Positions 17,630 to 33,444 of a DNA stretch of 64,000 nucleotides are shown in pieces. The translations under genes were made by a program, and so were the position numbers. Location: positions 7,202 to 71,201 of the forward strand of contig JAFRPW010000027.1 in assembly GCA_017428945.1 (NCBI GenBank). Reading direction: 5' to 3'. The notes beneath the pieces are model-generated. The model did no database searches and was not told the DNA's origin. It saw only the letters and a program-made list of their open reading frames with translations. This stretch comes from Bacteroidales bacterium (GTDB lineage Bacteria > Bacteroidota > Bacteroidia > Bacteroidales > UBA932). Position 1 is the first letter of the stretch. Each line of letters opens with the position of its first letter.

Positions 17630-18793
17630 TTAATAGACCTTCACTGAAGTTTCCGGAGCATCCACCAGCGTAAACTGGGCCGCACCGGAGTAGATTGTCA
17701 TGATACCGGTTATGTCGGCCGATTTGCCTCCGGAGAGAAGTCCGGCGTCAAGAACCTGGTCCGCAAACTTTGCGTATCCGCTGGTTCGCACCTGGATATC
17801 CGTGGAGCCAAGTTTGAAGTAGTGGGAGACGTAGTTTGCGGTGGCATATTTCTTCATCACCTCTTTATATGTCAAGTCTGCATCCATGCCAAAAGCTTCG
17901 ATTCTGCTTTCCTGTGCTGTACCGGTAAGGGCCTTGCGCACCACGAAGCAGACAGATCCGGGGCCGTAACGGGTAGCACCGGAGCCAACTTCTGCCTGGT
18001 CAAGGGCGCCGCTGTCCAGCATTTCAATGTACTTGGCCTTAGACAGCGACCATGTCTTGATACCCCATGTGGACTCAGAGAGGAACACGCGGTTCTCCGG
18101 GTTGGCGCTCTTGTGAGGAAGGTTGGGGTTGGGATAGACCAGTGCAAAAATCTGGTTTCCGTACTTGAGGCCCTTGATGGTGACAAGTTTGCCCCAGAGT
18201 TCTCCGGTAAAACCGGCGGAGATGGCTGCCTTTACTTTAGCCTCATCGACAACCTCTGGAGCAATGGGAGTTCCCACCTCTCCTTTAAAGACATGCTGGT
18301 CGATGATGGTCTGAAGGTCTATGTACGATGTCTCGTACTCGTTGCTGGAGGTCTCGTCAGCAGCCAGGCCAAGCTGAGGCATGCCGTTATATGCACCAAG
18401 CGTGAGGTCGTCACAGTACACATAAAGTGTCTGGCCAAGAGCGTACTCGCTGTAAAGGGAGGACTTGCCCAGTTTGAGGTCGATACCACCGGTTTCATCC
18501 TGGATGTACACTTCACGGTAAATATTGCCGGTGACATCCGAGGAAATGACTTTACCCTTTATCCAGACATTGCCGCTTACGGAAAGAGGAGTACCCTTGT
18601 ACAGGGTCTTAAGCTCCTTGATAGTCTTGTAGCTGCCGATGGCCGGAGAGTTGGGGGGCAGGTTGGAATCCGTGTATGGAACGTACTGTGCCGACGGCTT
18701 CGGATCACCAAGCACTGGCTGCCATTCTTCTATCAGACTCCGGCAGGAAACGAGGGCGGCTGCAGCCGCAAGGATTACGATAATCTTTTTCAT
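17630..18793 (-). CDS. Surface lipoprotein with OB-fold-like DUF5689-type domain
   Basis: Lipobox ALVSC. WIKGKVISSD-GNIYREVYIQDETGGI and VRTSGYAKFA are typical of this Bacteroidetes family; last gene of the TBDT/nuclease cluster. Confidence 0.65.
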   Translation of the reverse strand: MKKIIVILAAAAALVSCRSLIEEWQPVLGDPKPSAQYVPYTDSNLPPNSPAIGSYKTIKELKTLYKGTPLSVSGNVWIKGKVISSDVTGNIYREVYIQDETGGIDLKLGKSSLYSEYALGQTLYVYCDDLTLGAYNGMPQLGLAADETSSNEYETSYIDLQTIIDQHVFKGEVGTPIAPEVVDEAKVKAAISAGFTGELWGKLVTIKGLKYGNQIFALVYPNPNLPHKSANPENRVFLSESTWGIKTWSLSKAKYIEMLDSGALDQAEVGSGATRYGPGSVCFVVRKALTGTAQESRIEAFGMDADLTYKEVMKKYATANYVSHYFKLGSTDIQVRTSGYAKFADQVLDAGLLSGGKSADITGIMTIYSGAAQFTLVDAPETSVKVY

Positions 18794-18798
18794 GGCTC

Positions 18799-21717
18799 TT
18801 AGAATCTGAAGTAAATGTTAAGCATGTAATTGGTTCCCGCCATATAGAAATACTTGGGGTCGAAACGGTAGAAACGTTCCTTGGAGACGGTGTTGTCCAC
18901 AAGTCTTGTCTGCTCATAACCGCCTGTCTTCACACTTCGGTTATTAAGAAGATTCTTTCCGTTGAAGGAGAAGCCAAGCTGGTACTTTCTCTGAATAAAC
19001 CAGGATTTACCCACGGAAATGTTGAAAAGCACCGCCGGGGCAAATCTCTCCTGCTCTGTCATGTATTCAATCTCCTCGTTTGTAATTGCGTTGTCCAGAC
19101 CAGCCACGGCATAATCTGTACGGTACAGAGGGTTCATGTCAAGATATGCGCGGTCGAAGTACTCTACGTCCCCGTCTATGAACCAGTAATTATGGTTCCA
19201 GGCCAATCCCAGGGAAATGGCGGTCTGGGGAGTAGTGGGTACGTAATGCTGCTTTTTGGTGCCATCCATCAGATTGGTCTGTGCCCAATAGCGCACTGGG
19301 ACAACAGTAGAATTAGTCCAGCCGTCAGGGGAGATTATGGGGTACTGGATTATTTCTGCATTGTTGTCTACGGTCTGGGTCATCACAGGGTTGGAAGTAT
19401 ATACATACTGGCCATACGCGACAACGCCCTGCAGACTTAGGTCAGGGATAATATAGGTAGGGAACTTGAATCCGAGTTCAACACCCATATGCCTCTGGTT
19501 TATACCGCTCAGTGCGAAGTTGGAGAAAGCGTTCTGAAGGTCATCGAACGCACTCATCACCTTGCTCTGATCCTTGATTGTAGTGTAGTATGCGGTTGCG
19601 CGTACGTTTATCCCCTGGGCGCTATACTGCCAGTTGACATCGGAAGAGAACGTCTTCACGGTCTTGAGATCCTGTACCATGGAGTTGCGGGTACGCGGAC
19701 TCAGGAACACCTGGTTGAATTTGGGCGCATCGGAGAAATAACCCACATTGGCGTACATGCGGCGGTTGCCGCCTATGACATAATTGAGGTTGAGTTTACC
19801 TGCATACGTGATGAACTTTGCCACATTGGACTTTCCGTAGGAGGTCTCTGCGGTGGGTTCTATGCCTTCATTTATCCATTGAGCTGCCATGGCGTCGTTC
19901 TCCGGCTGCCCGGGGAAGAGACCCTTTCTCATGAGGCCTTCCCTCCAGAAACTCTCATAGCCCAGACGTCCGCCGGCGGCAATGCTGAGTTTGCCAAGGA
20001 CGGTGGTTCCGGTGACCCAGCCGCCAAAGCTGCGAACTTTGGCCATGTAGTCATATCCGTATTTGTCTCCCTCGTGAAGGGTACGGGCCTGACCGTTTGC
20101 AAGATAGTAGTCAAGGTCATTCTGGAGTTTGTAAGGAGTTGCGGCAAACTCACGCTCGGCAAAATTATCCACATCCACAAAGTACTCGCCACCAAGGAGA
20201 TCGGCCACCTTCTTATAATACTCGGTATTATTGATTCTGGCGCTGAGGCCACCGGCCACATCCACATTGGCGAGAGGACGATACTTGAAGGAGTAAGCCA
20301 TATTGAGATCACTCTGGTCTACGTGACGCTGCTCCTGAATATACTTGGAACGGCCACCCTGAAGGTAGTTCACGTTGTAGAGGCGGTCCCAGTTAATGTG
20401 AGTAAGCTCCGGGTACTGCCCTGAGTGCTGCCATACCCACTGGCTCCAACCGTACTTCATGGGGTTGTTACGGTTGAGGTCGTCATTATACACACCACCT
20501 ACAGTCCCATAGAAGTAGCTTGGAAGGTTGCGGTAGTAGTCCGGACGCGGATCCTGGGCATCGTACCAGTCAAGGGCGGTGTAACCGTTCTTGCCAAAAC
20601 GATACAGCAAAGTAAGGTTGCTCTCGAATTCCTCGCTGGGTTTGTACTCCCATTTCACAAAAGCGATGGGCTCGTTGGTCTTGCGGACACGGGCATTGCG
20701 GACCTTGCCGCCCTGGTAACCCCAGTTGCTATTGTACATGTTGTCACCCATGAGATCATACACCTCCTGGGTAGATGCATTCTGTGCGCCTCGCTCGCCG
20801 GGAGTGGCGAAGAAGACGAAACTGAGCATATTGGCATCGTCAAAGACCTTGTCTGCAGCAAGGTAATAGGCAAGAGACTTATAGTAAACACCGTCTATCC
20901 AGTCGTTGCCGCCAAGACGGGCGCTGACGTTTACGGCGAAAGCCCAGCCATTGTCCTGCATGCCCGTGGCATAAGAGCCCATAAGACGCAACCTGTACAG
21001 GGTGCTGTTGGTAAGAACGCTTCCGCGAAGGCCTTTACGCATCTGTGATGCGGTACCGAATATATTGGTGGCTCCGTTATATCCGCCAAAGCCAAAATCT
21101 GCGAACTCAGCGCCGTTTACCGTGTCCTTGCTGCGGGTGGCCTCGTTAAGGCCGCTCCACAGGGAGAAAGGACCGTAACCGGTAATTGCGTCATTCAGCT
21201 TTACGCCTGCAAGATAAACTTCCTGGCTCTCTGAGGCATAACCGCGGGCGCGGAAACGCACGGAGGAGAAATTGTATCCGGCGATATTGTTGAATACGTC
21301 GTTACTGCCGAAAAGGATTGTGGGGTTGTCGTTGAAGCCGCTGTCGTCCATATCGAAGGCAGCGAATGAATCATCGTCAAGGTCGGTCACGTGCTGGATT
21401 GAGGTAAGGCCAACATTGAACAGGTTCTTTACCAGGCCGTCAACAACGGCAAAATCTATCTGGGTCTCCAGAAAATCTGGGGCTGTGACAACCAGTGAGT
21501 ACATGCCGTCCGGGAGCCCTCTGAAAACGAACTCGCCATCCTTGTCAGAAACCGTTGTCCCAATGGTGGCGGCATCTTTCAGAAGCACCAGTTTGGCTTT
21601 CTCAACTCCCTGACGCCCGTTACGGTTTATGACCGTTCCCTTCACGCCTCCAGTCTGTGCAAACAGGAGGGCTGCAGAAAACATGGCCGCTATAGTGAGT
21701 AGGATTCTCTTGGCCAT
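18799..21717 (-). CDS. TonB-dependent receptor-like outer-membrane protein with N-terminal carboxypeptidase-regulatory-like domain
   Basis: Signal peptide, GGVKGTVIN domain, alternating beta-strand pattern, C-terminal YMLNIYFRF ending in Phe. Confidence 0.8.
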   Translation of the reverse strand: MAKRILLTIAAMFSAALLFAQTGGVKGTVINRNGRQGVEKAKLVLLKDAATIGTTVSDKDGEFVFRGLPDGMYSLVVTAPDFLETQIDFAVVDGLVKNLFNVGLTSIQHVTDLDDDSFAAFDMDDSGFNDNPTILFGSNDVFNNIAGYNFSSVRFRARGYASESQEVYLAGVKLNDAITGYGPFSLWSGLNEATRSKDTVNGAEFADFGFGGYNGATNIFGTASQMRKGLRGSVLTNSTLYRLRLMGSYATGMQDNGWAFAVNVSARLGGNDWIDGVYYKSLAYYLAADKVFDDANMLSFVFFATPGERGAQNASTQEVYDLMGDNMYNSNWGYQGGKVRNARVRKTNEPIAFVKWEYKPSEEFESNLTLLYRFGKNGYTALDWYDAQDPRPDYYRNLPSYFYGTVGGVYNDDLNRNNPMKYGWSQWVWQHSGQYPELTHINWDRLYNVNYLQGGRSKYIQEQRHVDQSDLNMAYSFKYRPLANVDVAGGLSARINNTEYYKKVADLLGGEYFVDVDNFAEREFAATPYKLQNDLDYYLANGQARTLHEGDKYGYDYMAKVRSFGGWVTGTTVLGKLSIAAGGRLGYESFWREGLMRKGLFPGQPENDAMAAQWINEGIEPTAETSYGKSNVAKFITYAGKLNLNYVIGGNRRMYANVGYFSDAPKFNQVFLSPRTRNSMVQDLKTVKTFSSDVNWQYSAQGINVRATAYYTTIKDQSKVMSAFDDLQNAFSNFALSGINQRHMGVELGFKFPTYIIPDLSLQGVVAYGQYVYTSNPVMTQTVDNNAEIIQYPIISPDGWTNSTVVPVRYWAQTNLMDGTKKQHYVPTTPQTAISLGLAWNHNYWFIDGDVEYFDRAYLDMNPLYRTDYAVAGLDNAITNEEIEYMTEQERFAPAVLFNISVGKSWFIQRKYQLGFSFNGKNLLNNRSVKTGGYEQTRLVDNTVSKERFYRFDPKYFYMAGTNYMLNIYFRF

Positions 21718-21720
21718 AAG

Positions 21721-22797
21721 CTATTTCTTTTTGATTATTATATAAGTGGGATAGTGGTCCGAGTATCCGCCTACGAACGCACCGTTTGAGAAGGTGCGGA
21801 ACGGAGTACCCTTGTACTGGCCGGTCTGGTTGGTCATGAAAGGCTTGTTGAAGACACGTCCGTAGAACTTCTTCTTGGTAATCTTCTGGATCTGGAAGGT
21901 CCCCTTAGGGGCATGGGCCAGCGCATTGTTGACCAGGATGCAGTCATAAATATTGCCTTCTCCCCTGTAATACAAAGAGCTGTAACCAGCGTCAAGCATG
22001 CTCCAGAAAGGCGCAAAGTAATCCTGATCTGTTACTTTGTTTATATCCTTCTGACCATGCATGTACTTTGCCATGGAAGGGTCGTAGGGGTTGTCGTTCA
22101 TATCGCCCATAATCACACACTTGATGCCGGGATACTTCTGCATCATCTTGCGGGAGTGCTCGTAGGCAATCTCTCCGCCGCGGGCACGGTTGTCGGCACC
22201 CTTGCCGCCAAGACGGGAAGGCAGGTGGCAAACGTAGAAGGCAAAATGCTCACCGTCGATTATGCCGTGTACCATGAGGATGTCACGTGTGCGGAAGTTG
22301 TCCTGCTCCTCCTTGGTCATGTCGAACTTGATGGCCGACGGAGCGAAGGTGAAGGGAATGGACTCGCTCTCCACCAGGGTCATCTTGGTGGGGTCGTACA
22401 GGAGGGCGCAGTCTACGCCTCGGCGGTCCGGGCCGTCGTAGTGGACAATCTGGTAATTGGCCTCTGCGATTGCGGGTTCCATCACCAGGTCTTCCAGGAC
22501 ATGGCGGTTTTCAATTTCCGATACGCCAAGCACCGTATGCCATACGCCATTGTCCTTCTTCATGGACTGGATTACGCGAGCCATGTTGCGGAGCTTCTTG
22601 GCATACTTTTCCGGAGTCCACTGATTGGCACCGTCAGGAAGGTACTCATAGTCGTTCTTCCCGTCATCGTGGAAAGTGTCGAAGAGGTTTTCCAGATTGT
22701 AAAAGCCAATCACGTGGGAACGGTTCTTCTTCTGTGCATCCAGATTAAGCGGAAGCAGCAGGAGAATGGCCAGAAGAGTGATCAGGTATTTTTTCAT
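21721..22797 (-). CDS. Secreted endonuclease/exonuclease/phosphatase (EEP, DNase I-like) family protein
   Basis: Signal peptide, GFYNLENLFD, LGVSEIEN, GDMND, GYSDHYP. Confidence 0.9.
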   Translation of the reverse strand: MKKYLITLLAILLLLPLNLDAQKKNRSHVIGFYNLENLFDTFHDDGKNDYEYLPDGANQWTPEKYAKKLRNMARVIQSMKKDNGVWHTVLGVSEIENRHVLEDLVMEPAIAEANYQIVHYDGPDRRGVDCALLYDPTKMTLVESESIPFTFAPSAIKFDMTKEEQDNFRTRDILMVHGIIDGEHFAFYVCHLPSRLGGKGADNRARGGEIAYEHSRKMMQKYPGIKCVIMGDMNDNPYDPSMAKYMHGQKDINKVTDQDYFAPFWSMLDAGYSSLYYRGEGNIYDCILVNNALAHAPKGTFQIQKITKKKFYGRVFNKPFMTNQTGQYKGTPFRTFSNGAFVGGYSDHYPTYIIIKKK

Positions 22798-22822
22798 ATG
22801 GATCTGATATTAATTGCTGTGT

Positions 22823-24049
22823 CTATTTCCACCATGAGAGTACTGTAGACTCCACGGCATCGGCGGTTTCCTTGCCAACTGCTGTGACAAGGTTGGGGAA
22901 AAAGTCTATACCTGTCTTTTCCTCCAACTGGTCAATGGACATAATATACTCCTTGTAATTGCCTTCGGAGATGTTGGAGGTGTGGGGAAGCAGGAATCCC
23001 GCAGACATATAGCCCTTTGTACCTGTGGCGGCCGACTGGTTTCCACGGTACAGCAGAGCCTTGAAGTAGTAGGTGGGAATCTTTACGGCAAAGCCGCTCT
23101 TTGTTCCGCTTGTGGTTGTGGAATTGTCAAACAGACAGCCTGTAACCACGTATAATGTATCAGATTTGTCCGAGTAATTCCTCACTGCCTGCTCCAGGTT
23201 AGCCCAGATCCCGCAGTTGAAATCATAGTCCTGAGGAGTCATATTGGTAGGGACAAAGGTGGAGATGTTTGCCGATTCCGGTTTAAGCCGGTCTGCCGAC
23301 GGCAACTGATGGCCACGGGTCCAGCCCCCGCCATATGAGCCCTGGACGATATTGGGCTGTATGGAAACGGGCAGAAGGGCATCGTAACCCCAGGTGTTGG
23401 TACGGCTTCCGCTTCCCCTCAGAGACTTGTTCAAGGGATATGCGACCCATAGGGACATGTGCTCATCGTAATCCCAGTAGCAGGACCAGTTGCGCGTGCC
23501 GTCGACACCTTTGGAAGAGTATTTTCCGCCCGTCATGCTATGGACAAGCACATCGCGCCCGTCTCCGGCCTTGCATGCCGGCAACTCAAGCCAGTCCATA
23601 GGTGCCACATCATAACCATATTGTCCGATACTCTGCTGCTGTTCATCCTTCCCCAACTGCTTTATCACCGCTGTTGCTCTGACGCCGCCGGATGTGGCAA
23701 GGGCCAGGGTAACGCTGCGTGAAGCTCCGGGGTTCTCCCCATAGCGGAAACGGATATCGCCCTTGGAGCCGGTGCCTTGGGCGGGCTCAAGCGTAACCCA
23801 CGGTTCCACATCGGCAGGGTATTCCGTTTGCAGTGTCCACTCTCCGGAAGCGGTTATGGACACAAACATGCTGCCAGCCCCTGGTTCAAGGGTGGTTTTT
23901 CTGGGGACGACTGTTTCCTCCACCATATCATCGCCACCGCTTCCGGAGGTGCCATAAAGCAGCTCCGGAAGCTTGTCGCAGGAAGATATGCAGGCTGCCA
24001 TAGCCAATACCATGGCAGCCTTTAGGAGTTTAGACATGAACTTACTCAA
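22823..24049 (-). CDS. Lipoprotein: BACON domain plus DNA/RNA non-specific (NucA/EndoG-type) endonuclease
   Basis: Lipobox CISSC, BACON-like ITASGEWT..W, His-Me motif TRGHQLPSADR, NMTPQ, FNCGIWANLEQAVR, IPTYYFKALL. Confidence 0.9.
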   Translation of the reverse strand: MSKFMSKLLKAAMVLAMAACISSCDKLPELLYGTSGSGGDDMVEETVVPRKTTLEPGAGSMFVSITASGEWTLQTEYPADVEPWVTLEPAQGTGSKGDIRFRYGENPGASRSVTLALATSGGVRATAVIKQLGKDEQQQSIGQYGYDVAPMDWLELPACKAGDGRDVLVHSMTGGKYSSKGVDGTRNWSCYWDYDEHMSLWVAYPLNKSLRGSGSRTNTWGYDALLPVSIQPNIVQGSYGGGWTRGHQLPSADRLKPESANISTFVPTNMTPQDYDFNCGIWANLEQAVRNYSDKSDTLYVVTGCLFDNSTTTSGTKSGFAVKIPTYYFKALLYRGNQSAATGTKGYMSAGFLLPHTSNISEGNYKEYIMSIDQLEEKTGIDFFPNLVTAVGKETADAVESTVLSWWK

Positions 24050-26519
24050 AGAAGACTTCTACATTTACCAGACGGGTCTGGCCGGCAGCAGCCTGCAGAA
24101 TGACGGTGCTTGCACTTCCTTCCCATTTGATGGTCTCGTCAGATTTGGATGCAACTGCAGTACCTTCTGTGCCCTCAACTCCTGTCAAGTCAAGAATATA
24201 CTGGCCACTGTTCAGATTGTTAGCCTTGAAGGAAAGGGCCTTGATGGTCTTTCCTGAAGGGGCTTCAATGAAGAACACTGCGCTCTTATATACCCTCATG
24301 CTGTACTGGTCAGGAGTGACAGGATTTGAAGTGCTCTTATACTTGTAAGTGGCCACCTTGAATCCCTCAACAGTTGCAGAGAAGCCATTCTTGAGCACAT
24401 CGCCGCCGTTATCCTCTGCAAAAGAAGTCTCGTTGTTGAGTGGTATGACTATGGAACTGGCATTGCCGGAACTTGCCTTGGCCTGGACTATCATAACCTC
24501 GATTTCCTTGGTTGCCACATCTGCATCTGTCTTCACGATGAGATTATAGGTCACGACATTCTCCGTATCAGTATTGGCGGGGAAATTTGCAGTGATCTCA
24601 CCGGCGCCCTGACCTGAAGCGGGAGACAGAGTCAAAGCGTTAATGGCAGTACTGGCCGTCCAGGCAACGTTGCCGGTAACCTTGATCACCGCGCTGGTTG
24701 CACTTGCAGAAACGCTGATCTGTGCCTTCTCAACGCCGAATACGGGACCCTGGTCAATGCTGGTCTGGCCGTTGAGGCTGTAGATATAAGCCTCCTTGCT
24801 GGAGGTTTCGGGAGTTCCGCCATAGTTGGTGAGCTTACCGCAGATAATCACTTCGTCACCTACGGCGACCTGTGCATCTCCGTCTACCCAGGCACGATTG
24901 CCAAGATAGTAGACGCTATATACCTGGAACTGGGTTCCGTTGGTAGAGCCGTCTTCGGAGATGTAGAACGTAGCAGTGCCATACTGGGCGCTGAAGGTGT
25001 ATTTTACAGAGGAGATTTTACCCTTTACGTACACATCATCAGTCTTGCCCTTGTCTTCAAGTGCGGAAGCCACGTCGGAAGCGGCCTTGGGGTTATAAGG
25101 ACTCTCAAGTGTGCCGTTGCCGGTTGCAGTCTCATCCTGGGTCTGACCTTCGGTGAAGGAAAGAATGTAGGCATTTACGACCTCGTGCTGCTGTTTGTTA
25201 GCATAGTAATCATACTTGCCGGCCAGCGTTACGGTACCGCCGTCCTTAATCTTGGAGCTCCACTCTGACTTGTTGTCAACGCTATACACGTAGATAAGAC
25301 CGGTTGCGTCAGTGAGGTCGAAGCTGCAGTAATTGGCGTTAAAGCCGGAGACCTTACCGGAAAGCTTGTAATAGTTATCTTTATCGGCAGCAGAAATAAA
25401 CTCTGCGACAGTCTTGGCGGGAACATTGTTGTAGTCGATTTCCTCGCCGCCCTGTACGTCAAGGATGTAGCCGTTTACCATTTCAGGAGTACCGTTGTAA
25501 TCCTTGAATACGCCAGCAATGGTGACGATGCTACCCTTCTTGACCTTATCCTGAACGGCAGACCAGTTGGATACACCGTAAATCTTAACTGTACCGGTAG
25601 CATCCTTGAGGTCGAAGTTGCCATACTGGGTATTGATACTGCCGGTAACTTCACCGGTAAGCTTATAAGGAGTCTTGGTATCTGCAAGTGCAATGAATTC
25701 AGCAACGGTCTTGGCCTCAGCCTTGGTGTAGTCTACCTCCTGACCACCAGTTGCCACGGTTTCACCATTGAGACTGTAGAGATAAGAACCCTTCTGTACT
25801 GTCTCCGGAGTGTTGCCCATATAGTTCATGACCTCGCCATAAACCACGGCTACATCACCTACAGCAATCTGGGTGTTGCCTTCCTGCCACTTCTTGTTTT
25901 CAAGATAGTAAACCCTGTAAGCAACAAACTTGGGGTCGGTAGCGTTTCCGTCATCAGTAATGGTGAAATTGCCATTGCCGTATTCCGCTCCGAAGGGCTC
26001 CTTTATGGAAGCGATCTTGCCCTTTACATAGAAAGGACCAACCTTATCGTACTCAGTAGTGCTGGTCCATGTGAGCCTTGATACAACTTCAGCAATCTGG
26101 GCTACATTGTAAGGCTTTTCCTTGGAGCCGTCGCCTTCTTCAGCAACGAATGTGCCCTGGCTGCCCTTCTGCTTTACCTTCAGGGTTGCCTTGACCATGC
26201 CGCCGCCGGCTGCAAAGACGATATCAATCTCGCGGTCAAAGCCGGTATTCTCTTCAACGGACACGGAAACGGTCTGAGGATCCTTGGATGCATTGCCGCT
26301 TTCCTGACCAAGGGCTACCCACTTGCCGGCAAGGTCTGTGGTTACGCTCCAGTTAAGGGTTGCATTCAGAGTAATTGTCTGGGAGCCCTCACCTGCCTCA
26401 AAATTGAGTTCGGTAGGATTGATATTGATCATGGGGGCACCAAGTTCCTCAATCTCCTCGCAGGCTGTGAACGCAAAAGCGCCCGCAATCACTGCCATGA
26501 ATAAATGTCTCAGTTTCAT
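24042..26519 (-). CDS. Surface lipoprotein: BACON domains plus four OB-fold-like repeats
   Basis: Lipobox AFTAC followed by acidic EEIEE. Repeats of (Y/V)KG(K/E)..QYG..F.(I/L).D..G....Y.V. Start reassigned to MKLRHLF. Confidence 0.75.
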   Translation of the reverse strand: MKLRHLFMAVIAGAFAFTACEEIEELGAPMININPTELNFEAGEGSQTITLNATLNWSVTTDLAGKWVALGQESGNASKDPQTVSVSVEENTGFDREIDIVFAAGGGMVKATLKVKQKGSQGTFVAEEGDGSKEKPYNVAQIAEVVSRLTWTSTTEYDKVGPFYVKGKIASIKEPFGAEYGNGNFTITDDGNATDPKFVAYRVYYLENKKWQEGNTQIAVGDVAVVYGEVMNYMGNTPETVQKGSYLYSLNGETVATGGQEVDYTKAEAKTVAEFIALADTKTPYKLTGEVTGSINTQYGNFDLKDATGTVKIYGVSNWSAVQDKVKKGSIVTIAGVFKDYNGTPEMVNGYILDVQGGEEIDYNNVPAKTVAEFISAADKDNYYKLSGKVSGFNANYCSFDLTDATGLIYVYSVDNKSEWSSKIKDGGTVTLAGKYDYYANKQQHEVVNAYILSFTEGQTQDETATGNGTLESPYNPKAASDVASALEDKGKTDDVYVKGKISSVKYTFSAQYGTATFYISEDGSTNGTQFQVYSVYYLGNRAWVDGDAQVAVGDEVIICGKLTNYGGTPETSSKEAYIYSLNGQTSIDQGPVFGVEKAQISVSASATSAVIKVTGNVAWTASTAINALTLSPASGQGAGEITANFPANTDTENVVTYNLIVKTDADVATKEIEVMIVQAKASSGNASSIVIPLNNETSFAEDNGGDVLKNGFSATVEGFKVATYKYKSTSNPVTPDQYSMRVYKSAVFFIEAPSGKTIKALSFKANNLNSGQYILDLTGVEGTEGTAVASKSDETIKWEGSASTVILQAAAGQTRLVNVEVFFE

Positions 26520-26593
26520 AGTATAGATTAGTGTTGATTGTTTCTGATTCACAAATATAACAATCTTTTTCGGTTATTCAATTTTTACATAGT

Positions 26594-26622
26594 AAAAACG
26601 GCTCCCGGAGTCCGGGAGCCGT
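26594..26622 (-). terminator. Intrinsic terminator inside the TBDT/nuclease cluster
   Basis: 11-bp perfect stem acggctcccgg/ccgggagccgt with a 3-nt loop, followed by a T-run on the minus strand. Confidence 0.75.
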
Positions 26623-26644
26623 AGAAAGAGAGTTCTAAAGACTC

Positions 26645-29600
26645 TTACTTCAGAGCAATTTTTTCCGCGTTGGTAGGATAGTACTGAACAGCCGTCTTAA
26701 CGGTTATTTCAGCTCCTGATGCGGGTGAACCAAGAGCAGAGCGGGGGACGCTCACCTCGATATAAGCGAAATCTCCAGAGATGGTTCCGCCGACTTTCAG
26801 CTTGGCACCGTCAACCTTGGTACCCACAGGATTGTCAATCCAGCTTGCAGGGTCCTCTCCGGCAGTAATTACCGCATTGGCAGCAGACGTCCAAGGATAG
26901 AAATACGCAAGAGCCTCGAGGCCGGCATTGTTTCCGGCTGCACCATGCTCTCCCTGACTGCCAGTAGAGGCATCGTTGTCAAGATTGAAGCCGATGTAGA
27001 ACGATGAAGAACCGTCGGTCTTGATCTTCTCTGCTGTCATCTTGTAATAGAAGTACACGTTGCTGGCATCGGAAGTGGCCTTCCACTCAACTATACGGTT
27101 GTTAACGCCTTCAAACTTGGTCTCAACAGCATCCCAGTCGCCAAGGTCACCGTCGATGGTGATGCCCTTGGGGGCGACAGCTATCTCCTCAGTGGAGGCC
27201 TGGATGCCGAAGATGATGGCCCTCTTGCCGTTGTTGGTTCCTTCGTAGGTCTCAACAGTGACAGGGGTATCCTGAGGAAGGGCTCCGCCAAGGTTGAAGG
27301 CATACTTGTCACTGTCAGTAACAGTGATGGTATAAGGGCTGCTGCCCGTTGCGCCATCATTTGCTGCGATGTCCACAGGTATTACGTTGCTGCCCAGCGT
27401 GAGCTTGAGGGATGCCGGAGCGCCTTTCCAACCTACGGCATAGAAAGATACGGACTTGGTGCCGGCAGGAAGAGTGACAGTTGCGCTGCCAAACTTGGAG
27501 CTGGTGCCAAGTTTGAGGGTAAAGACGTCCGCAGTACCGTTAACGGTGGCTACGCCGTCAGTGTAGGCACTGCTCACGGTGACTATTCCGTCCTTTACAT
27601 TGGTGTCATACTCACCAAGTTCTGCCGGAGGATTGGAAGATCCGTTTGCTGCGCCGATGGTAGGAGTGTCGAAGATGACAAACTTATCGGCACCGTCGGT
27701 TTCGCGGCCCCAGGACTTGCCGTCCTCGATAGTAACGATATTGGTCAGGTTATCAACCTCATCCACAACTGCATCTCCCTTCTTGAGGGCGATCTTGAAG
27801 CCCTTGGTGCCGCTTAGGCCGAACACAGGGCCGTTGGCGGCATCGGTCTGCTTGCAAGTGAATACTGCATAACCCTTTGCAGGAACCTTTGCGAGGGCGG
27901 CCGGGATAGAGAAGGTATCCTTCTCGCCTTCTTCGCCGTCGTTCTTGAGGATTATCCAACCGGTCATATCCACTTCTGCGTCGGTGGCATTATAGATCTC
28001 GATCTGCTTGTTCTGGCAGTCGAACTCGTTGAGATACAGCTCGGGAACCACCTCTGCAGGAGTAGCCTCGGTTACGCCGTTGAGGCTGTAGACATAGGCC
28101 TTCTTGCTGGAGGTCTCGTAAGTGGACTTGTAGAGAGTGAGCTGGCCCTTGATGATGACCTCGTCACCGACGGCCACCTGGGCATTGCCTTCTTCCCAAG
28201 GCTTGTTCTCAAGGAAGTAGGCGCTGTAAACCTCGAAGTCCTTGGCGGGCTCTGTGGTGCTCTTCTTGTCGTCAGATACACCGTAGGCGGTGCCATCGTC
28301 AGAAATCCAGAAGGTACCGGTACCATAATTGGCGCTGAACTCATAGAGGACCGCGGAAACCTTACCCTTGACGGCTACGTCAGGGAGAGTGAGCGTAGCA
28401 CCGGCATCACTGGCTGCCTTGACGGCGGCCTGGGTGTCGTCGATGAACTTCTCAGCACCGGCAATGTTGAAAGGATAGTCAACGCTGCCAAGACCGTTGG
28501 CATCGGTGGTTGCCCAGTTGATGCTGTAGATCTTTGCTTTCTTGCTGGCGGTCTCGTATGTGGTGACGTCGTTCTTGGTATATGCAGTGACTGCACCGAA
28601 GAGGATGACTTCGTCGCCTACGGAATAGTTGCCCTTTATGTCTGCTGCAGCGACGGGAGCGTCAAGGCTACCGCCGAGCCAGTACACGCTGTAAGCTTCG
28701 AAGTCCTTGTTGAGGTCATCGTTGAAGACGCCGTCGTCAGAAATCCAGAAGGTGCCGGTGTTGTAGCTTTCGCTGTAGGTATAGACAGCCTTGGAGACGA
28801 TACCCTTAATGTATACGTTACCGGCTGCACTATTATTCTTGATGGCCTCGATAACCTGAGCTACTGTGTAAGGATTGTCAAGAGTACCAACTGCGGAATA
28901 TCCGCCCTGCTTGAGGGTAAGGGTAATATCCTTGGCACCGGCGCTCTTCACCGTGAAGGTAGCCTCGCGGGCCTCGGTCTCAGTATTGGCATCGAAGGAA
29001 ACCCTGATCTCAGTGGCATCCTTGGCGCCGGACTTGGTGTAGTCCTTGATCCAGGAAGCATCGGTGCTTACGGTCCAGCCCTCGGTGAGGTTCTTGGGAG
29101 CGATGGTGAAGGTGGCTTCGGTCTCGGAAGCGGCTACAACCTTCTCGGGCTCCTTGCAGGAGATGGTGGGAGCGGTGTTGGCATCCAGCTTGACGAGGTA
29201 AGCGGCATTCTGGCTGGTTTCTGCCTGGCCGCCATAATTCATAAGGACACCATAGATTACAACGTTGTCACCTTCGCTGATGTTCTGCTTGGTGGGATCG
29301 TCATACTTGACATTGTCGAAGTAGTAGATACGGTAGGCTTCGAAAGTCTTTTCGCCCTCGGCGTCGCCCATCCAGAAGGTGGCGTTGCCATACTGGGTGC
29401 CGAATTCTTCGACAATAGCGGTGATGATACCCTTGACATAGTACTTCTTGGGCGTTGTGGCCTTGTCTGCCAACTTGCCGCAGAGCACTACAGCCTCTGC
29501 ACAGGTAAGAGGATCATCCTCGGTGAGGCCGTGAGGGTCACCGGTCTGAACTACGGTAATGAGCTTTTCCAGTTTGCCGGCCTGGAGGGAAACCTCTCCG

Positions 29601-29881
29601 GTACGGTCTTCGTCGGATGCTCCGACGGTAATGGTAACCTTTGTGGTACCGCTGCCGGTGGCAGGGGTGAATGCGATCCAGTCGGCGGAGGAAGTGGCCT
29701 TCCATGTGATGTCGCCGCTGTTGACCTCAACGGTTGCGCTGCCGCCTTCAGAACCAACTGCCACGATGCTCTTGTCAAGGTCTATGGCAAGGTTGTAGGA
29801 TGCCACGGGCTCTTCCTCTATACAGGAGGCAAAGAGCGAGACACCTGCGAGCGCAGAAAGAATATATCTGAACAGTTTCAT
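26645..29881 (-). CDS. Large surface lipoprotein: BACON, three OB-fold-like repeats, lamin-tail-like domain, C-terminal beta-sandwich
   Basis: Lipobox LFASC followed by IEEE, three G(T/S)..(N/D)P..YVKG..YG..TFW(I/M)..D repeats, LYLNEF..IEIYN..VDMTGW (LTD-like), ITIDGDLGDW domain. Confidence 0.72.
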   Translation of the reverse strand: MKLFRYILSALAGVSLFASCIEEEPVASYNLAIDLDKSIVAVGSEGGSATVEVNSGDITWKATSSADWIAFTPATGSGTTKVTITVGASDEDRTGEVSLQAGKLEKLITVVQTGDPHGLTEDDPLTCAEAVVLCGKLADKATTPKKYYVKGIITAIVEEFGTQYGNATFWMGDAEGEKTFEAYRIYYFDNVKYDDPTKQNISEGDNVVIYGVLMNYGGQAETSQNAAYLVKLDANTAPTISCKEPEKVVAASETEATFTIAPKNLTEGWTVSTDASWIKDYTKSGAKDATEIRVSFDANTETEAREATFTVKSAGAKDITLTLKQGGYSAVGTLDNPYTVAQVIEAIKNNSAAGNVYIKGIVSKAVYTYSESYNTGTFWISDDGVFNDDLNKDFEAYSVYWLGGSLDAPVAAADIKGNYSVGDEVILFGAVTAYTKNDVTTYETASKKAKIYSINWATTDANGLGSVDYPFNIAGAEKFIDDTQAAVKAASDAGATLTLPDVAVKGKVSAVLYEFSANYGTGTFWISDDGTAYGVSDDKKSTTEPAKDFEVYSAYFLENKPWEEGNAQVAVGDEVIIKGQLTLYKSTYETSSKKAYVYSLNGVTEATPAEVVPELYLNEFDCQNKQIEIYNATDAEVDMTGWIILKNDGEEGEKDTFSIPAALAKVPAKGYAVFTCKQTDAANGPVFGLSGTKGFKIALKKGDAVVDEVDNLTNIVTIEDGKSWGRETDGADKFVIFDTPTIGAANGSSNPPAELGEYDTNVKDGIVTVSSAYTDGVATVNGTADVFTLKLGTSSKFGSATVTLPAGTKSVSFYAVGWKGAPASLKLTLGSNVIPVDIAANDGATGSSPYTITVTDSDKYAFNLGGALPQDTPVTVETYEGTNNGKRAIIFGIQASTEEIAVAPKGITIDGDLGDWDAVETKFEGVNNRIVEWKATSDASNVYFYYKMTAEKIKTDGSSSFYIGFNLDNDASTGSQGEHGAAGNNAGLEALAYFYPWTSAANAVITAGEDPASWIDNPVGTKVDGAKLKVGGTISGDFAYIEVSVPRSALGSPASGAEITVKTAVQYYPTNAEKIALK

Positions 29882-29896
29882 GATATTACGCTGTTA

Positions 29897-32800
29897 TTAA
29901 TTGAACAAGTACTTGAGACCCAGCTGGAGGTACCATGCCTGACCGATGGTCTTTAAAGGCATGAAGGACTTGGCGCCTTCCTTCAGAGGAGTGGAGAATA
30001 CGGGCTGGCCGTCAGAGTTGAAGTGGTCAAGCGTCAGGATCTGGCCGTTGTTGGCGGTATCGGACCAGGTGGTCATGACACCCCAGCTGTCGTTCAGGAG
30101 GTTGCCCACGTTCATGATGTCGCAGCTGAGCTGCAGGGTATTGGTGGTGTTGCCGATACGGACCTTGATGTCCTGGGCGACCTTCATGTCGAAGTAGTGC
30201 ACCATGGGCCTGTGAGCGCCGTATGCCTGTGCATACTTGCCCTTGCGGGAAGACAGGTATGAATCCTGCTCCACGAAAGCCCAGAAAATGTCGCGGTTGG
30301 TGTCGTCGGTGAACAGGATCTCGTCCTTGGTAGCAGGAATGTAGATGAGGTCCGTGATGTTGGAGTCGCCGTTGACGTCGCCGTCGAACTTGAAGGTGCC
30401 GTATGCGTCACCGCTGTTGCTGGGGACGAAGGCATTGTAAAGGAGGCTCAGGCTGGTTCCCCAGGGCATCCTGTAGGAGACGGAGGCCATGAGGCGGTCC
30501 GGGCTCACGTACTGTGAAGGCTGCAGGGTTGCAAATGCGGGACCGTCAACAGTAGGAAGGCCCTTGAAGACGGACTCCGGGTCGGAGCCGGGCATACCCG
30601 TAACCTCGTACTGCTCCGTATGCGTGTAGGATGCGTTTACACGGAGATTCTTGATGGGCTGTGCGTTGGCGCTGAGAACGAATATCCAGCCATAACCCTT
30701 GTTGGTGTTGGTGAGGTAGTATGCAGGAGTACCCGTGTAGTAAGCGTTGGAAGGATAGACGTGACGATTGTCCGGACCTGCCCACTGGGACCAACCGGCG
30801 TTGCTCTTGGTGTTGATATCCTTGATGAGGTTTGCGTTCACATTCTTGTTGAAGGTGTACTCGGCAGTCATGTTGAACGGGAACTCGGTGGGGAGCTGCA
30901 TGTCAAGGGCGATGGAAGACTTCCAGATCTGGGGCATCTTGAAGTTGGGATCGACGCCTGCAATCTTGGATGACAGCTGTCCTTTGTCGGGAGAAATCTC
31001 GTAAGGGTTCTTATCCGGGTCAATGGCATTGAGGGCGGCGAGGATGTCTTCAGTGGTGACGGGAAGCTTTCCGTCAGGACCAACTGCAAACTTATCCAGG
31101 CCGGCATTGCGGAACTCCACGTTTCCGTTCTTCCACTGAGTGGTGATGACGGACAGGTGCTGGAACATGGCTGCGTTGGTAGGCATGTTTGTCATGAACA
31201 CCAGGGGGAGACGGCCTGCGAACAGACCGGTGCCGCCGCGGATCTTCATGCTCTTGTCTCCGAACACGTCATAGACAAAGCCGATACGGGGGGATACCTG
31301 GATGTTGGTCTTGGGCCAGTAGCCGGTGTCGATGCGGAGGCAGCCGTCACCGTCGGCGTGACCGCCCTCGGGTTCCTCGCCGAAGTGGAGAGCCTTCACG
31401 GCGTTGTTGGTCATAAGGTCCTTGCTGTTGTACAGGATGGTATCGAAGCGGACGCCTGCGGTGACCTTGAGTTTCTCGTTCACGTCCCACTCGTCCTGGC
31501 CGTAGAGGCCGATCTGGTTGAACTGGATACGTGCGGACGGGGTGTCACCCATACCGTTGTTGGTGTAGCCGTAGGTGAGGGCCACGGTTTCAGGGGCCGC
31601 GCCGTTGATGAAGTCGTCGACGCTCTTGAAGCGGTAGTAACCGGTACCTTCACGCATATAGGCGTTGTCTGCGAACTGGTATTCGTTGGAGATGCCGGCG
31701 GTGATCTTGTGGGCGCCGAGGAAATAGGTGAGGTCGTCCTTGACGGTGAACACGCGGTTGTGAACGCCGTTGTACCAGGTGAAGAGCTCGTAACCTGCGC
31801 TGATGTAAGGCTCAAGGATCTGGGTACCGTCCGAGTTGGAGCCCTTCATAATGTCGATGAAGGGGAACTTGTCAGAATCGGAACCACGGACGTCCTCGAT
31901 GTTGGAGTAGGTGACGAGGAGCTGGTTGGAGAGGTCGTTGGTGAGACGGCTGTTGAGGTCCAGGGAGTAGGTCCTCACGTTGTTCTCCATCGAGTACATT
32001 GAATTGTAGAAGGCCATCGAGTATTCCGACATACGGTTCAGGGACAGGCGGGTACCCTTGAGGGATTCCTGGGTGCCGTCCTTGGTTGAACCCCAGTCAC
32101 CGGAAGAACCGTTGGTGCCTACCCAGTGCTTTGAAGTGGTGTAGTTGAAACGGAATGCGAGATGGTGCTTGTCCGTGATGTTCCAGTCCAGGCGGCCCAG
32201 GAGCTTGATGGTGTTGGATTCCTTGCCGTAGTCGTCCCAGCCGCCGGTGTCGTAGCCGTAACGGTTCTTGAGGTGGTCCGAGACACGCTGCATATCGGAA
32301 TTCAGGGTACGGGCGATGGAGCCGTTCTTGTAACCTTTTTCCAGGATGGTCTCGGGGCCGACAGTCACATCGTTGCCATTGTCATCCTTGTAGGTATAGG
32401 AGGAAGTACCGTCATATGCACGGTATGCAAATACCTGGTTTGCAGGCTCTCCCTGATACTCTACGCTTCCGAAGAAGAAGAGTTTGTTCTTGATGATGGG
32501 GAAGCCAAGCGTTGCACCGTAGACAGTGCTCTTTTCAGCCTGGTTAGCCTCCTTGTTGGGGATTTCCTGGCCGCCGTTGAGGGTGGAGCCGCGGAGCTTG
32601 CCGTTCTGGTGGTAGACATAGGCGGTTCCCTTAACGGTGTTGGTACCGGACTTGGTAATGGCGTTGATACCGCCGCCGATGAAGTTGGTCTGCCTTACGT
32701 CGAACGGGGAAACCACAACCTGGAGTTCCTCGATGGCGTCCATGGAGACAGGGTTGCCGCCGCCGGGAAGGCTTGAGGAAAGACCGAAGTTGTTGTTGAA

Positions 32801-33367
32801 GTTTGCACCGTCGATGGTGAAGTTGGTGCTACGGCCGTCGCCACCTGCGATGGACATTCCGTTACCGCCGTAAGGAGAAAGCTTGGCGATATCGGAAACG
32901 CTGCGGTTTGCGGTGGGCAGTGCCAGGATTTCCTGCTGGGAAACGTTGGTTGCGGCACCGGTCTTCTCCTGGGCGGCGAACTTGGAAGTGGGCGTTGCCA
33001 CAACCACCACGGCCTCAAGGAATTCCGCAGACTCCTGCAGCCACACGTTCAGGTTATAAGCCTGACCCAGCTGGAGGGTGATGTCCGTGTAGTTGACGCT
33101 CTGGTAACCCAGGTTGGAGAACTCTACGGTGTAAGGACCGCCGGTACGCATACCCTGTATGGTATAGCGGCCTTCCACGTTAGTCACGGCGCCGTAAACG
33201 GTACCGGAGGGTTCATGCTGCGCAAGGATGGCGGCGCCGATGACCGGCTCGCCATTCTGGTCAACCACGCGGCCCTGTAGGGTTGATGTGGTGACCTGCG
33301 CAAACGCAGACACGCCCGCAATCAGCGTAGTGAAAGCGAGCAGAAAGCTTTTGAAAGCGTTTTTCAT
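29897..33367 (-). CDS. TonB-dependent receptor (Oar-like, carboxypeptidase-regulatory N-domain)
   Basis: AQVTTS..GRVVDQNGEP, IDGANFNNNFGL, DVRQTNFIGGGINAITKSGTN, C-terminal LQLGLKYLFN. Start reassigned to MKNAFKS. Confidence 0.9.
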   Translation of the reverse strand: MKNAFKSFLLAFTTLIAGVSAFAQVTTSTLQGRVVDQNGEPVIGAAILAQHEPSGTVYGAVTNVEGRYTIQGMRTGGPYTVEFSNLGYQSVNYTDITLQLGQAYNLNVWLQESAEFLEAVVVVATPTSKFAAQEKTGAATNVSQQEILALPTANRSVSDIAKLSPYGGNGMSIAGGDGRSTNFTIDGANFNNNFGLSSSLPGGGNPVSMDAIEELQVVVSPFDVRQTNFIGGGINAITKSGTNTVKGTAYVYHQNGKLRGSTLNGGQEIPNKEANQAEKSTVYGATLGFPIIKNKLFFFGSVEYQGEPANQVFAYRAYDGTSSYTYKDDNGNDVTVGPETILEKGYKNGSIARTLNSDMQRVSDHLKNRYGYDTGGWDDYGKESNTIKLLGRLDWNITDKHHLAFRFNYTTSKHWVGTNGSSGDWGSTKDGTQESLKGTRLSLNRMSEYSMAFYNSMYSMENNVRTYSLDLNSRLTNDLSNQLLVTYSNIEDVRGSDSDKFPFIDIMKGSNSDGTQILEPYISAGYELFTWYNGVHNRVFTVKDDLTYFLGAHKITAGISNEYQFADNAYMREGTGYYRFKSVDDFINGAAPETVALTYGYTNNGMGDTPSARIQFNQIGLYGQDEWDVNEKLKVTAGVRFDTILYNSKDLMTNNAVKALHFGEEPEGGHADGDGCLRIDTGYWPKTNIQVSPRIGFVYDVFGDKSMKIRGGTGLFAGRLPLVFMTNMPTNAAMFQHLSVITTQWKNGNVEFRNAGLDKFAVGPDGKLPVTTEDILAALNAIDPDKNPYEISPDKGQLSSKIAGVDPNFKMPQIWKSSIALDMQLPTEFPFNMTAEYTFNKNVNANLIKDINTKSNAGWSQWAGPDNRHVYPSNAYYTGTPAYYLTNTNKGYGWIFVLSANAQPIKNLRVNASYTHTEQYEVTGMPGSDPESVFKGLPTVDGPAFATLQPSQYVSPDRLMASVSYRMPWGTSLSLLYNAFVPSNSGDAYGTFKFDGDVNGDSNITDLIYIPATKDEILFTDDTNRDIFWAFVEQDSYLSSRKGKYAQAYGAHRPMVHYFDMKVAQDIKVRIGNTTNTLQLSCDIMNVGNLLNDSWGVMTTWSDTANNGQILTLDHFNSDGQPVFSTPLKEGAKSFMPLKTIGQAWYLQLGLKYLFN

Positions 33368-33444
33368 AAAGTTTTGATGATAAATATTGATACGATAGTA
33401 TATTTCTACCAAAAAACCGTTGCGAAGTTACTACTTTTTTATGA

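Follow-up and report, generated by a model that had tools for sequence, protein, structure and literature searches.

A probable ddb-type nucleic-acid utilisation locus with OB-array lipoproteins in an uncultured ruminant-gut Bacteroidales

What does an outer-membrane gene cluster take up when its layout follows the logic of a polysaccharide utilisation locus (PUL) but the hydrolases it encodes are nucleases? The question is raised by seven minus-strand open reading frames (ORFs), g1 to g7, which occupy positions 17630–33412 of the 64,000-nucleotide stretch of contig JAFRPW010000027.1 analysed here (hereafter the window) and are separated by gaps of 3–25 bp, except for 125 bp between g2 and g3. 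A first-pass annotation had described them as co-oriented genes for an Oar-like transporter, two multi-repeat lipoproteins, two nucleases, a second transporter and a DUF5689-like lipoprotein, a content that the ORFs and Pfam confirm, and had read the whole as one SusD-less locus for the capture, degradation and import of extracellular nucleic acid. The analysis below assigns the core of the cluster, g3–g7, a probability of about 0.75 of being a nucleic-acid utilisation locus of the ddb type, and gives roughly even odds that g1–g2 belong to the same nucleic-acid system.

Genes g4 to g7 correspond to ddbABCD

The ddbABCDEF DNA-utilisation locus of Bacteroides thetaiotaomicron (Sharan et al., PNAS 2025; PMC12478041) encodes a nuclease with a signal peptidase II (SPII) signal (DdbA), a nuclease with a signal peptidase I (SPI) signal (DdbB), a TonB-dependent transporter (DdbC), a DUF5689 protein (DdbD) and, in addition, DdbE, an SPII protein without an assigned function, and DdbF, another nuclease with an SPII signal. 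The three nucleases are active in vitro, and a strain from which the locus is deleted neither depletes exogenous DNA nor releases uracil and xanthine from it; predictions place DdbD on DdbC as a docking partner and liken it to the HIN domain of p202, which binds double-stranded DNA (PMC12478041). In the window, g4–g7 correspond to ddbABCD in gene order, domain families and SPII/SPI signal classes and, together with the retained catalytic residues of both nucleases, lend support to the reading of the cluster as a SusD-less apparatus for nucleic-acid capture, degradation and import; the suspicion voiced at first pass that related Bacteroides clusters might already be described was correct, ddb having been published in 2025.

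The g4 product (22823–24049, with an alternative ATG start at 24037) is a predicted DdbA-like surface nuclease, a lipoprotein (AAC/ISSC-DK) that combines a BACON domain, matched weakly by Pfam and similar at its N-terminus to the BACON domain of g3 (E 4e-9), with a NucA/Serratia-type DNA/RNA non-specific endonuclease domain (Endonuclease_NS, PF01223, 1.8e-36). It aligns to Anabaena NucA (2o3b, 2.8e-20), to the Serratia nuclease and to EndoG/EXOG, and in the NucA alignment both the RGH catalytic motif and the metal-binding Asn of the TNMxPQ motif (here TNMTPQ) are in place. Gene g5 (21721–22797) encodes a DdbB-like, presumably periplasmic nuclease of the EEP family (Exo_endo_phos_3, PF19580, 2.7e-87), which comprises more than 4500 clusters at 50% identity; it carries a Sec-type SPI signal (LDA-QKK), and it keeps all of N34, E96, D232, N234, D347 and H348, the EEP catalytic residues that proved invariant when 52 diverse family members were aligned. 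With their catalytic residues intact, both nucleases look functional.

The transporter g6 (18799–21717, 972 aa, SPI signal) is matched in Pfam solely by an N-terminal CarboxypepD_reg domain (PF13620, 1.5e-11), with no plug or barrel match, and a profile of the g6/DdbC family matched no solved transporter among PDB sequences. Its AlphaFold2 (AF2) model (predicted template modelling score, pTM, 0.64; predicted local distance difference test, pLDDT, 62) matches PqqU (4e-21), YncD, OprC, FhuA, FecA and BtuB with E values of 4e-21 to 1e-15, over about 850 columns and with target template modelling (TM) scores of 0.5–0.65. Because the model matches TonB-dependent transporters, g6 is best taken as a divergent transporter of this type and of the DdbC family, and in the predicted structure the TonB-dependent transporter fold is clearly present. 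At the site where a TonB box is expected, the DdbC-type family has a conserved acidic stretch, DD.xFAxFD, instead. Identity of g6 amounts to 42–47% with Bacteroides, Alistipes and Phocaeicola homologues from loci of the same gene order and to 28–30% with Prevotella-type homologues. Starting 6 bp past the end of g6, g7 (17630–18793) encodes a DUF5689 lipoprotein (PF18942, 4.6e-42; VSC-RSL, lipid-bearing Cys at position 17), a DdbD-like protein that would be the DNA-binding partner of g6. Searches of PDB sequences with g5 and g7 gave no matches, and an NCBIfam search of the locus proteins added nothing specific.

Conservation of this order was assessed in a survey anchored on the EEP gene, with one genome per species, which returned 80 loci; the window proteins were mapped on all of them, and group counts were taken from the 48 of these species representatives whose flanks are complete. 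Of the 48, 28 keep NucA, EEP, transporter and DUF5689 in collinear order, namely 21 close loci (EEP at least 50% identical) and seven distant ones from Alistipes, Rikenellaceae and Muribaculaceae, and a DUF5689 gene follows the transporter in every collinear locus. Outside the count, the Odoribacter locus L043, which has short flanks, is collinear too, and three Bacteroides loci (L084, L088 and L089) have the same order. A further 18 of the 48 show a divergent, Prevotella-like layout, in which EEP lies on the strand opposite to that of the transporter, DUF5689, OB lipoprotein and NucA. Dozens of independent genomes share the gene order of the window, which excludes a chance grouping of these genes, and the synteny comparison proposed at first pass bore out a conserved locus type.

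Four ddb subtypes, Bt1, Bt2, Pv1 and Pv2, swap at one genomic site (PMC12478041), membership requiring that identity exceed 50% and coverage 75% to one of the reference DdbC proteins WP_008762511.1, WP_055220680.1, WP_005843284.1 or WP_117829583.1. The present locus probably falls outside all four, as judged from the 42–47% identity of g6 to the retrieved homologues and not to these reference DdbCs; a Bacteroides ihuae homologue search covered ten large clusters, in which members from B. nordii, B. salyersiae, Bacteroides sp. K03, Alistipes and Phocaeicola coprocola were identifiable. A PUL-like logic without SusD and the exchange of variants at a fixed genomic site are common to ddb and the locus described here, but the described ddb loci measure about 5.8–8.9 kb as opposed to 15.7 kb, and the window has no ddbE or ddbF after g7, while g3 lies upstream of the core genes and is itself preceded by g1–g2; the host, moreover, is an uncultured ruminant-gut lineage. 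The genes downstream of g7 were considered as candidates for ddbE and ddbF and rejected, as they encode an M3 peptidase and a mannose-6-phosphate isomerase instead.

The comparison with SusC/SusD PULs follows similar lines. There too surface lipoproteins bind and cut a polymer, a transporter and a lipoprotein import it and a periplasmic hydrolase finishes the degradation, but the hydrolases of the window are nucleases, and Pfam finds neither SusD nor a glycoside hydrolase family in any of the seven proteins. The absence of SusD, glycoside hydrolase and local regulator, remarked upon at first pass, holds for the seven genes and for the neighbours examined.

OB-fold modules in the lipoproteins g3 and g2

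Upstream of the nuclease genes, g3 (24042–26519, with its likely start at the ATG at 26519, MKLRHLF...) encodes an 825-aa lipoprotein, predicted to lie at the surface, in which a BACON domain is followed by OB(A1), OB1, OB2, OB(A2), a BACON-like domain and a C-terminal beta-sandwich. Against a cut-off of 27 bits, Pfam detects PF01336 (44.8 bits) and PF13742 (35.3 bits), and it also reports BACON. The A modules align to OB1 and OB2 in hhalign with probabilities of 99.4–99.7% and E values of 1e-22 to 1e-25; being homologous to the PF01336-type modules OB1 and OB2, they bring the number of OB folds in g3 to four. The AF2 model of g3 is confident at residues 30–680 (mean pLDDT 82). Foldseek matches obtained with it include p204 HINab bound to double-stranded DNA, RADX bound to single-stranded DNA, Teb1 and a BACON match, which is weak evidence; the search with the full-length model was noisy, its top matches being long multi-domain beta-rich proteins with TM scores of about 0.1, and as such uninformative.

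The 1078-aa product of g2 (26645–29881) is a paralogue of g3 (29% identity over about 640 aa), likewise a lipoprotein with a predicted surface location, and is ordered BACON, OB, BACON, OB, OB, lamin-tail (residues 613–709) and two C-terminal domains without a family match. Pfam reports two BACON domains and the lamin-tail domain (LTD, 2.4e-8), and hidden Markov models (HMMs) of the modules resolve the array as BAC-OBa-BAC-OBa-OBa, that is, three OB modules; for the C-terminal domains of g2 (339 aa) and g3 Pfam gave no match. Lamin-tail domains occur also in ExeM/NucH extracellular nucleases. A derivation of the OB modules from DUF5689 was tried and rejected, the best hhalign probability being 33% and not significant.

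Lipoboxes read from the sequences are present in g2, g3, g4 and g7, in agreement with the four lipoproteins first proposed, at least two of them with acidic residues after the Cys: these are g2 (FASC-IEEE) and g3 (FTAC-EEIEE), where acidic residues immediately follow the lipid-bearing Cys, at position 20 in both. On the strength of their domains and signals, g2 and g3 are likely to be surface DNA-capture proteins.

Homologues of g3 number more than 2700 and are essentially all unnamed, and the literature library searched contains no paper that connects BACON and OB-fold proteins to Bacteroidetes nucleases. According to the module HMMs, OB lipoproteins across related loci contain between 1 and 10 OB modules each. 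One is found ahead of NucA in 18 of the 21 close-clade loci and in 3 of the 7 distant collinear loci, and between DUF5689 and NucA in 7 of the 18 divergent Prevotella-type loci, where this slot matches ddbE by position only. Module number and order differ strongly among loci, and very large OB-array lipoproteins are found in L024 (3437–8674) and L028 (653–6172), one of 1746 aa with about nine OB modules and another of 1840 aa. The g3 position in Bacteroides (L084; L088, 4213–6648; L089, 4216–6636) is taken by an 810-aa lipoprotein whose N-terminus is BACON-like and which has DUF5689 domains where g3 has OB folds of the PF01336 type.

Two probable transcription units

Between g2 and g3 lies an intrinsic terminator (26593–26622, minus strand; ACGGCTCCCGG-ACT-CCGGGAGCCGT followed by TTTTT), whose hairpin (26622–26598) has an 11-bp stem, with 9 G-C pairs, ahead of a T-run; among the terminator candidates in the 19.5 kb scanned it ranks first in strength. 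The terminator is followed on the same strand by a Bacteroidetes -7 box, TATATTTG (26552–26559), 33 nt upstream of the g3 ATG; the motif TAnnTTTG occurs 39 times in the window, 20.9 occurrences being expected. A hairpin of other sequence with a T-run stands at the same position in eight relatives (L001, L002, L003, L009, L013, L018, L027 and L044), each with a TAnnTTTG box 33–51 nt ahead of the g3-like ATG. Because a terminator and a -7 box separate g2 from g3 at a conserved position, g1–g2 and g3–g7 are read as two transcription units, and TATATTTG is likely the promoter of the second. Of the internal terminator (26594–26622) postulated at first pass the strong hairpin stands, but its presumed role in setting stoichiometry within a single operon does not, since hairpin and -7 box together indicate two units.

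The locus is transcribed in vivo, in sheep and other gut metatranscriptomes. RNA contigs from four of these end at 26493–26536, just downstream of the -7 box, and none crosses 26537–26712; one run yielded a 4422-nt contig that reaches from g3 through g4 into the start of g5, with a depth of about 17x, and g2 and g1 contigs of the same run have word depths of about 5–8. Contig depth and contig ends are weak measures, and the metatranscriptomes agree with two units but fall short of proof. Rfam identified no riboswitch or other RNA element in the leaders, and there are no tRNAs in the window.

An accessory Oar-like transporter and its lipoprotein

The first unit begins with g1 (29897–33367), whose likely ATG (MKNAFKS...) at 33367 coincides with the end assigned to the locus at first pass and opens a 1156-aa protein with a Sec-type SPI signal (SAFAQ-V). 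Pfam reports CarboxypepD_reg (PF13620, 1e-21), OMP_b-brl_4 (PF25183, 1.7e-46) and TonB_dep_Rec (PF00593, 4.4e-9), in addition to a weak plug match (E 0.0036), and a TonB-box-like EAVVVVA is present. With CarboxypepD_reg, a plug and a large PF25183/PF00593 barrel, g1 is an Oar-like TonB-dependent transporter, a likeness of architecture alone to the Myxococcus xanthus protein Oar, which is required for secretion of the protease PopC (PMC6434023). Against the SusC/RagA model TIGR04056 it scores 63.6 bits (cut-off 368), in the N-terminal domain only, and its sole match among PDB sequences is an N-terminal SusC fragment. A recent common origin of g1 and g6 by duplication was rejected, as the two show a weak N-terminal alignment only (E 0.13) and no significant similarity.

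The g1-like family has more than 8000 members. Throughout the loci examined such transporters have metK as a neighbour, and the next gene encodes a BACON lipoprotein, nearly always with OB modules. Of the 21 close-clade loci 8 contain the g1–g2 module, which the distant ones all lack; it is duplicated in L004–L006 and L092, and it constitutes an autonomous accessory pair. A nucleic-acid role for this pair is suggested by the OB and lamin-tail domains of g2 and by its frequent adjacency to the core.

Two variant loci differ in this region. In L039 (5640–13066) a g1-like Oar-type transporter, the sole transporter beside NucA and EEP there, is directly followed by NucA, EEP and an M3 peptidase, with no DdbC/DdbD pair and no OB lipoprotein. 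In L007 (7681–9941) the place of g1–g2 upstream of the OB lipoprotein is taken by a Metallophos phosphoesterase together with a second EEP protein, which fits a nucleic-acid or phosphoester theme.

Distribution and mosaic surface parts

The best match in the survey shows no more than 78% identity and belongs to a ruminant metagenome-assembled genome (MAG); the relatives, likewise MAGs, are of rumen and gut origin and bear the labels Bacteroidales or Candidatus Cryptobacteroides, and DNA and RNA runs containing the sequence derive from sheep, goat and bovine gut metagenomes. The host is thus an uncultured ruminant-gut Bacteroidales.

Comparison with two relatives, L001 and L093, reveals an uneven pattern of conservation. 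Their flanking housekeeping genes are 86–96% identical to those of the window. In L001, metK (93%) and the M3 peptidase (91%) are accompanied by g3 (83%), g4 (87%), g5 (91%), g6 (89%) and g7 (87%) at high identity and by g1 (50%) and g2 (54%) at low identity; in L093, alaS (92%) and metK (96%) are accompanied by g1 (86%), g2 (58%), g3 (39%), g4 (55%), g5 (87%) and g6 (75%), g7 not being on the contig. Predicted surface-exposed parts are therefore replaced piecemeal among congeneric genomes, while the flanks and the predicted periplasmic nuclease are conserved, a mosaic that echoes the subtype substitution reported for ddb.

Discussion

The following scheme would account for these data. OB arrays of g3, and probably also of g2, would hold extracellular DNA or RNA at the cell surface, where the NucA-type endonuclease g4 would cut it; g7 and g6 would import the fragments into the periplasm, and g5 would degrade them further there. 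The g1–g2 pair would most likely provide a second, exchangeable route of capture and import for nucleic acid. We infer in this way the substrate, the surface localisation, the protein complexes and the purpose of the system, which would be salvage of nucleobases or nutrients.

Several points weigh against this scheme. The locus and its organism are known from sequence, predicted structures and transcripts alone. Ligands of OB folds and BACON domains need not be nucleic acids, g7 has no acidic export signal after its Cys, and no canonical TonB box is evident in g6, whose model is moderately confident (pLDDT 62). DNA is a poor sole source of carbon, nitrogen or phosphorus in B. thetaiotaomicron (PMC12478041), and a nutritional role is for this reason not established. 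As regards g1–g2, the pair is absent from 13 of the 21 close-clade loci and probably transcribed separately, and in L091 a g1–g2-like pair adjoins metK without a nuclease core. Such absences and the standalone pair imply that part of the adjacency to the core may reflect a conserved genome position, and the single locus proposed at first pass is to be corrected in that g1–g2 is a module of its own that also occurs without the nucleases.

The last points lead to an alternative that keeps only g3–g7 as nucleic-acid genes and makes g1–g2 an unrelated pair beside metK, serving uptake or secretion, for example of peptides, glycans or another polymer. The terminator of g1–g2 and the separate promoter of g3 would agree with it, as would the L091 pair and the 13 close-clade loci that have no g1, the classical association of BACON domains with glycan systems and the conserved neighbourhood of an M3 peptidase. 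It is nevertheless rather unlikely: g2 contains three OB modules homologous to those of g3 as well as a lamin-tail domain, the g2-like partners bear OB modules in nearly every locus, L091 included, and in L039 the g1-like transporter stands directly ahead of NucA and EEP where the DdbC/DdbD pair is missing.

A different function for the core itself would be that of a DNA-uptake machine for natural transformation, in which g6 and g7 move long DNA through the outer membrane for recombination and the OB lipoproteins act as receptors. In Riemerella anatipestifer the DdbC/DdbD homologues RA0C_RS04915/RA0C_RS04920 are essential for natural transformation (PMC8459023; PMC12478041), and the arrangement is similar, with a CarboxypepD_reg outer-membrane protein beside a DUF5689 protein and an EEP nuclease adjoining. 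The system that serves transformation there has no NucA-type surface endonuclease, OB-array lipoproteins or second transporter. In the window g6 is flanked by two non-specific nucleases with intact active sites, one predicted at the surface and one with a Sec signal, and the neighbouring genes examined have housekeeping functions and include neither ComEC nor DprA nor ComF, which makes transformation an improbable purpose. Equally improbable is a main role in remodelling the extracellular-DNA matrix (biofilm formation or dispersal, or escape from DNA traps) rather than in import and metabolism: although a homologue of the ddbF nuclease was reported as an extracellular DNase that promotes bile-dependent biofilm in B. 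thetaiotaomicron (PMC8851478), remodelling has no need of the tight coupling of nucleases to a transporter and a predicted DNA-binding lipoprotein seen across many genomes, and ddb deletion abolished nucleobase production from DNA (PMC12478041).

The reading of g3–g7 as a ddb-type locus, with g1–g2 as a possible accessory, goes beyond the ddb publication in the OB-array lipoproteins, the accessory Oar-like pair, the two-operon layout and the mosaic surface parts; the expectation at first pass that this expanded version might be undescribed is borne out for the OB-array lipoproteins and the g1–g2 pair (compared with PMC12478041). A bolder proposal, which we put forward tentatively and with the odds somewhat against it, is that g2, g3 and their more than 2700 relatives form an unrecognised class of Bacteroidales surface lipoproteins that present variable arrays of 1–10 OB folds as a "flypaper" for DNA or RNA, and that g1–g2 is a second SusC/SusD-like pair for nucleic-acid import, distinct from DdbC/DdbD, or else that g1 exports the nucleases of the locus. 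Export of proteins by g1 is speculation based on the analogy with Myxococcus Oar (PMC6434023). If the flypaper proposal were true, the mosaic replacement of surface parts would stem from selective pressure that phage or host immunity, for instance, exert on exposed receptors.

Extracellular DNA and RNA are abundant in the gut and rumen, and what becomes of them has consequences for nucleobase pools, for the cycling of phosphorus and nitrogen and for how long free genes persist. Work on ddb in 2025 established the core machinery in human-gut Bacteroides; ruminant-gut Bacteroidales routinely add multi-OB lipoproteins to it and some add a second transporter pair. The OB lipoproteins are concrete candidates for the substrate-capture step and could possibly explain functional differences among ddb subtypes.

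Neighbouring genes

The locus is flanked by housekeeping genes, with metK upstream and an M3 peptidase gene and mannose-6-phosphate isomerase downstream, and miaA, two M23 peptidases and alaS farther away. Anti-phage defence was considered and rejected, PADLOC giving zero hits.

Directly after the DUF5689 gene, at 15525–17513 on the minus strand, lies the gene for a Dcp-like lipoprotein of the M3 peptidase family. The same peptidase follows the g7 position in 19 of the 21 close-clade loci and is also present in L039, which has no DdbC/DdbD pair, but the distant loci all lack it; its ORF adjoins the end of g7, or overlaps it, in several relatives. The adjacency is probably a lineage-specific synteny, and co-transcription with the locus is possible.

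Elsewhere in the window, at 40793–43297 on the plus strand, a single 834-aa ORF joins an LptF/LptG permease (residues 7–447) to a methionyl-tRNA formyltransferase (residues 483–808), and may be either a true fusion or two genes without an intervening in-frame stop.

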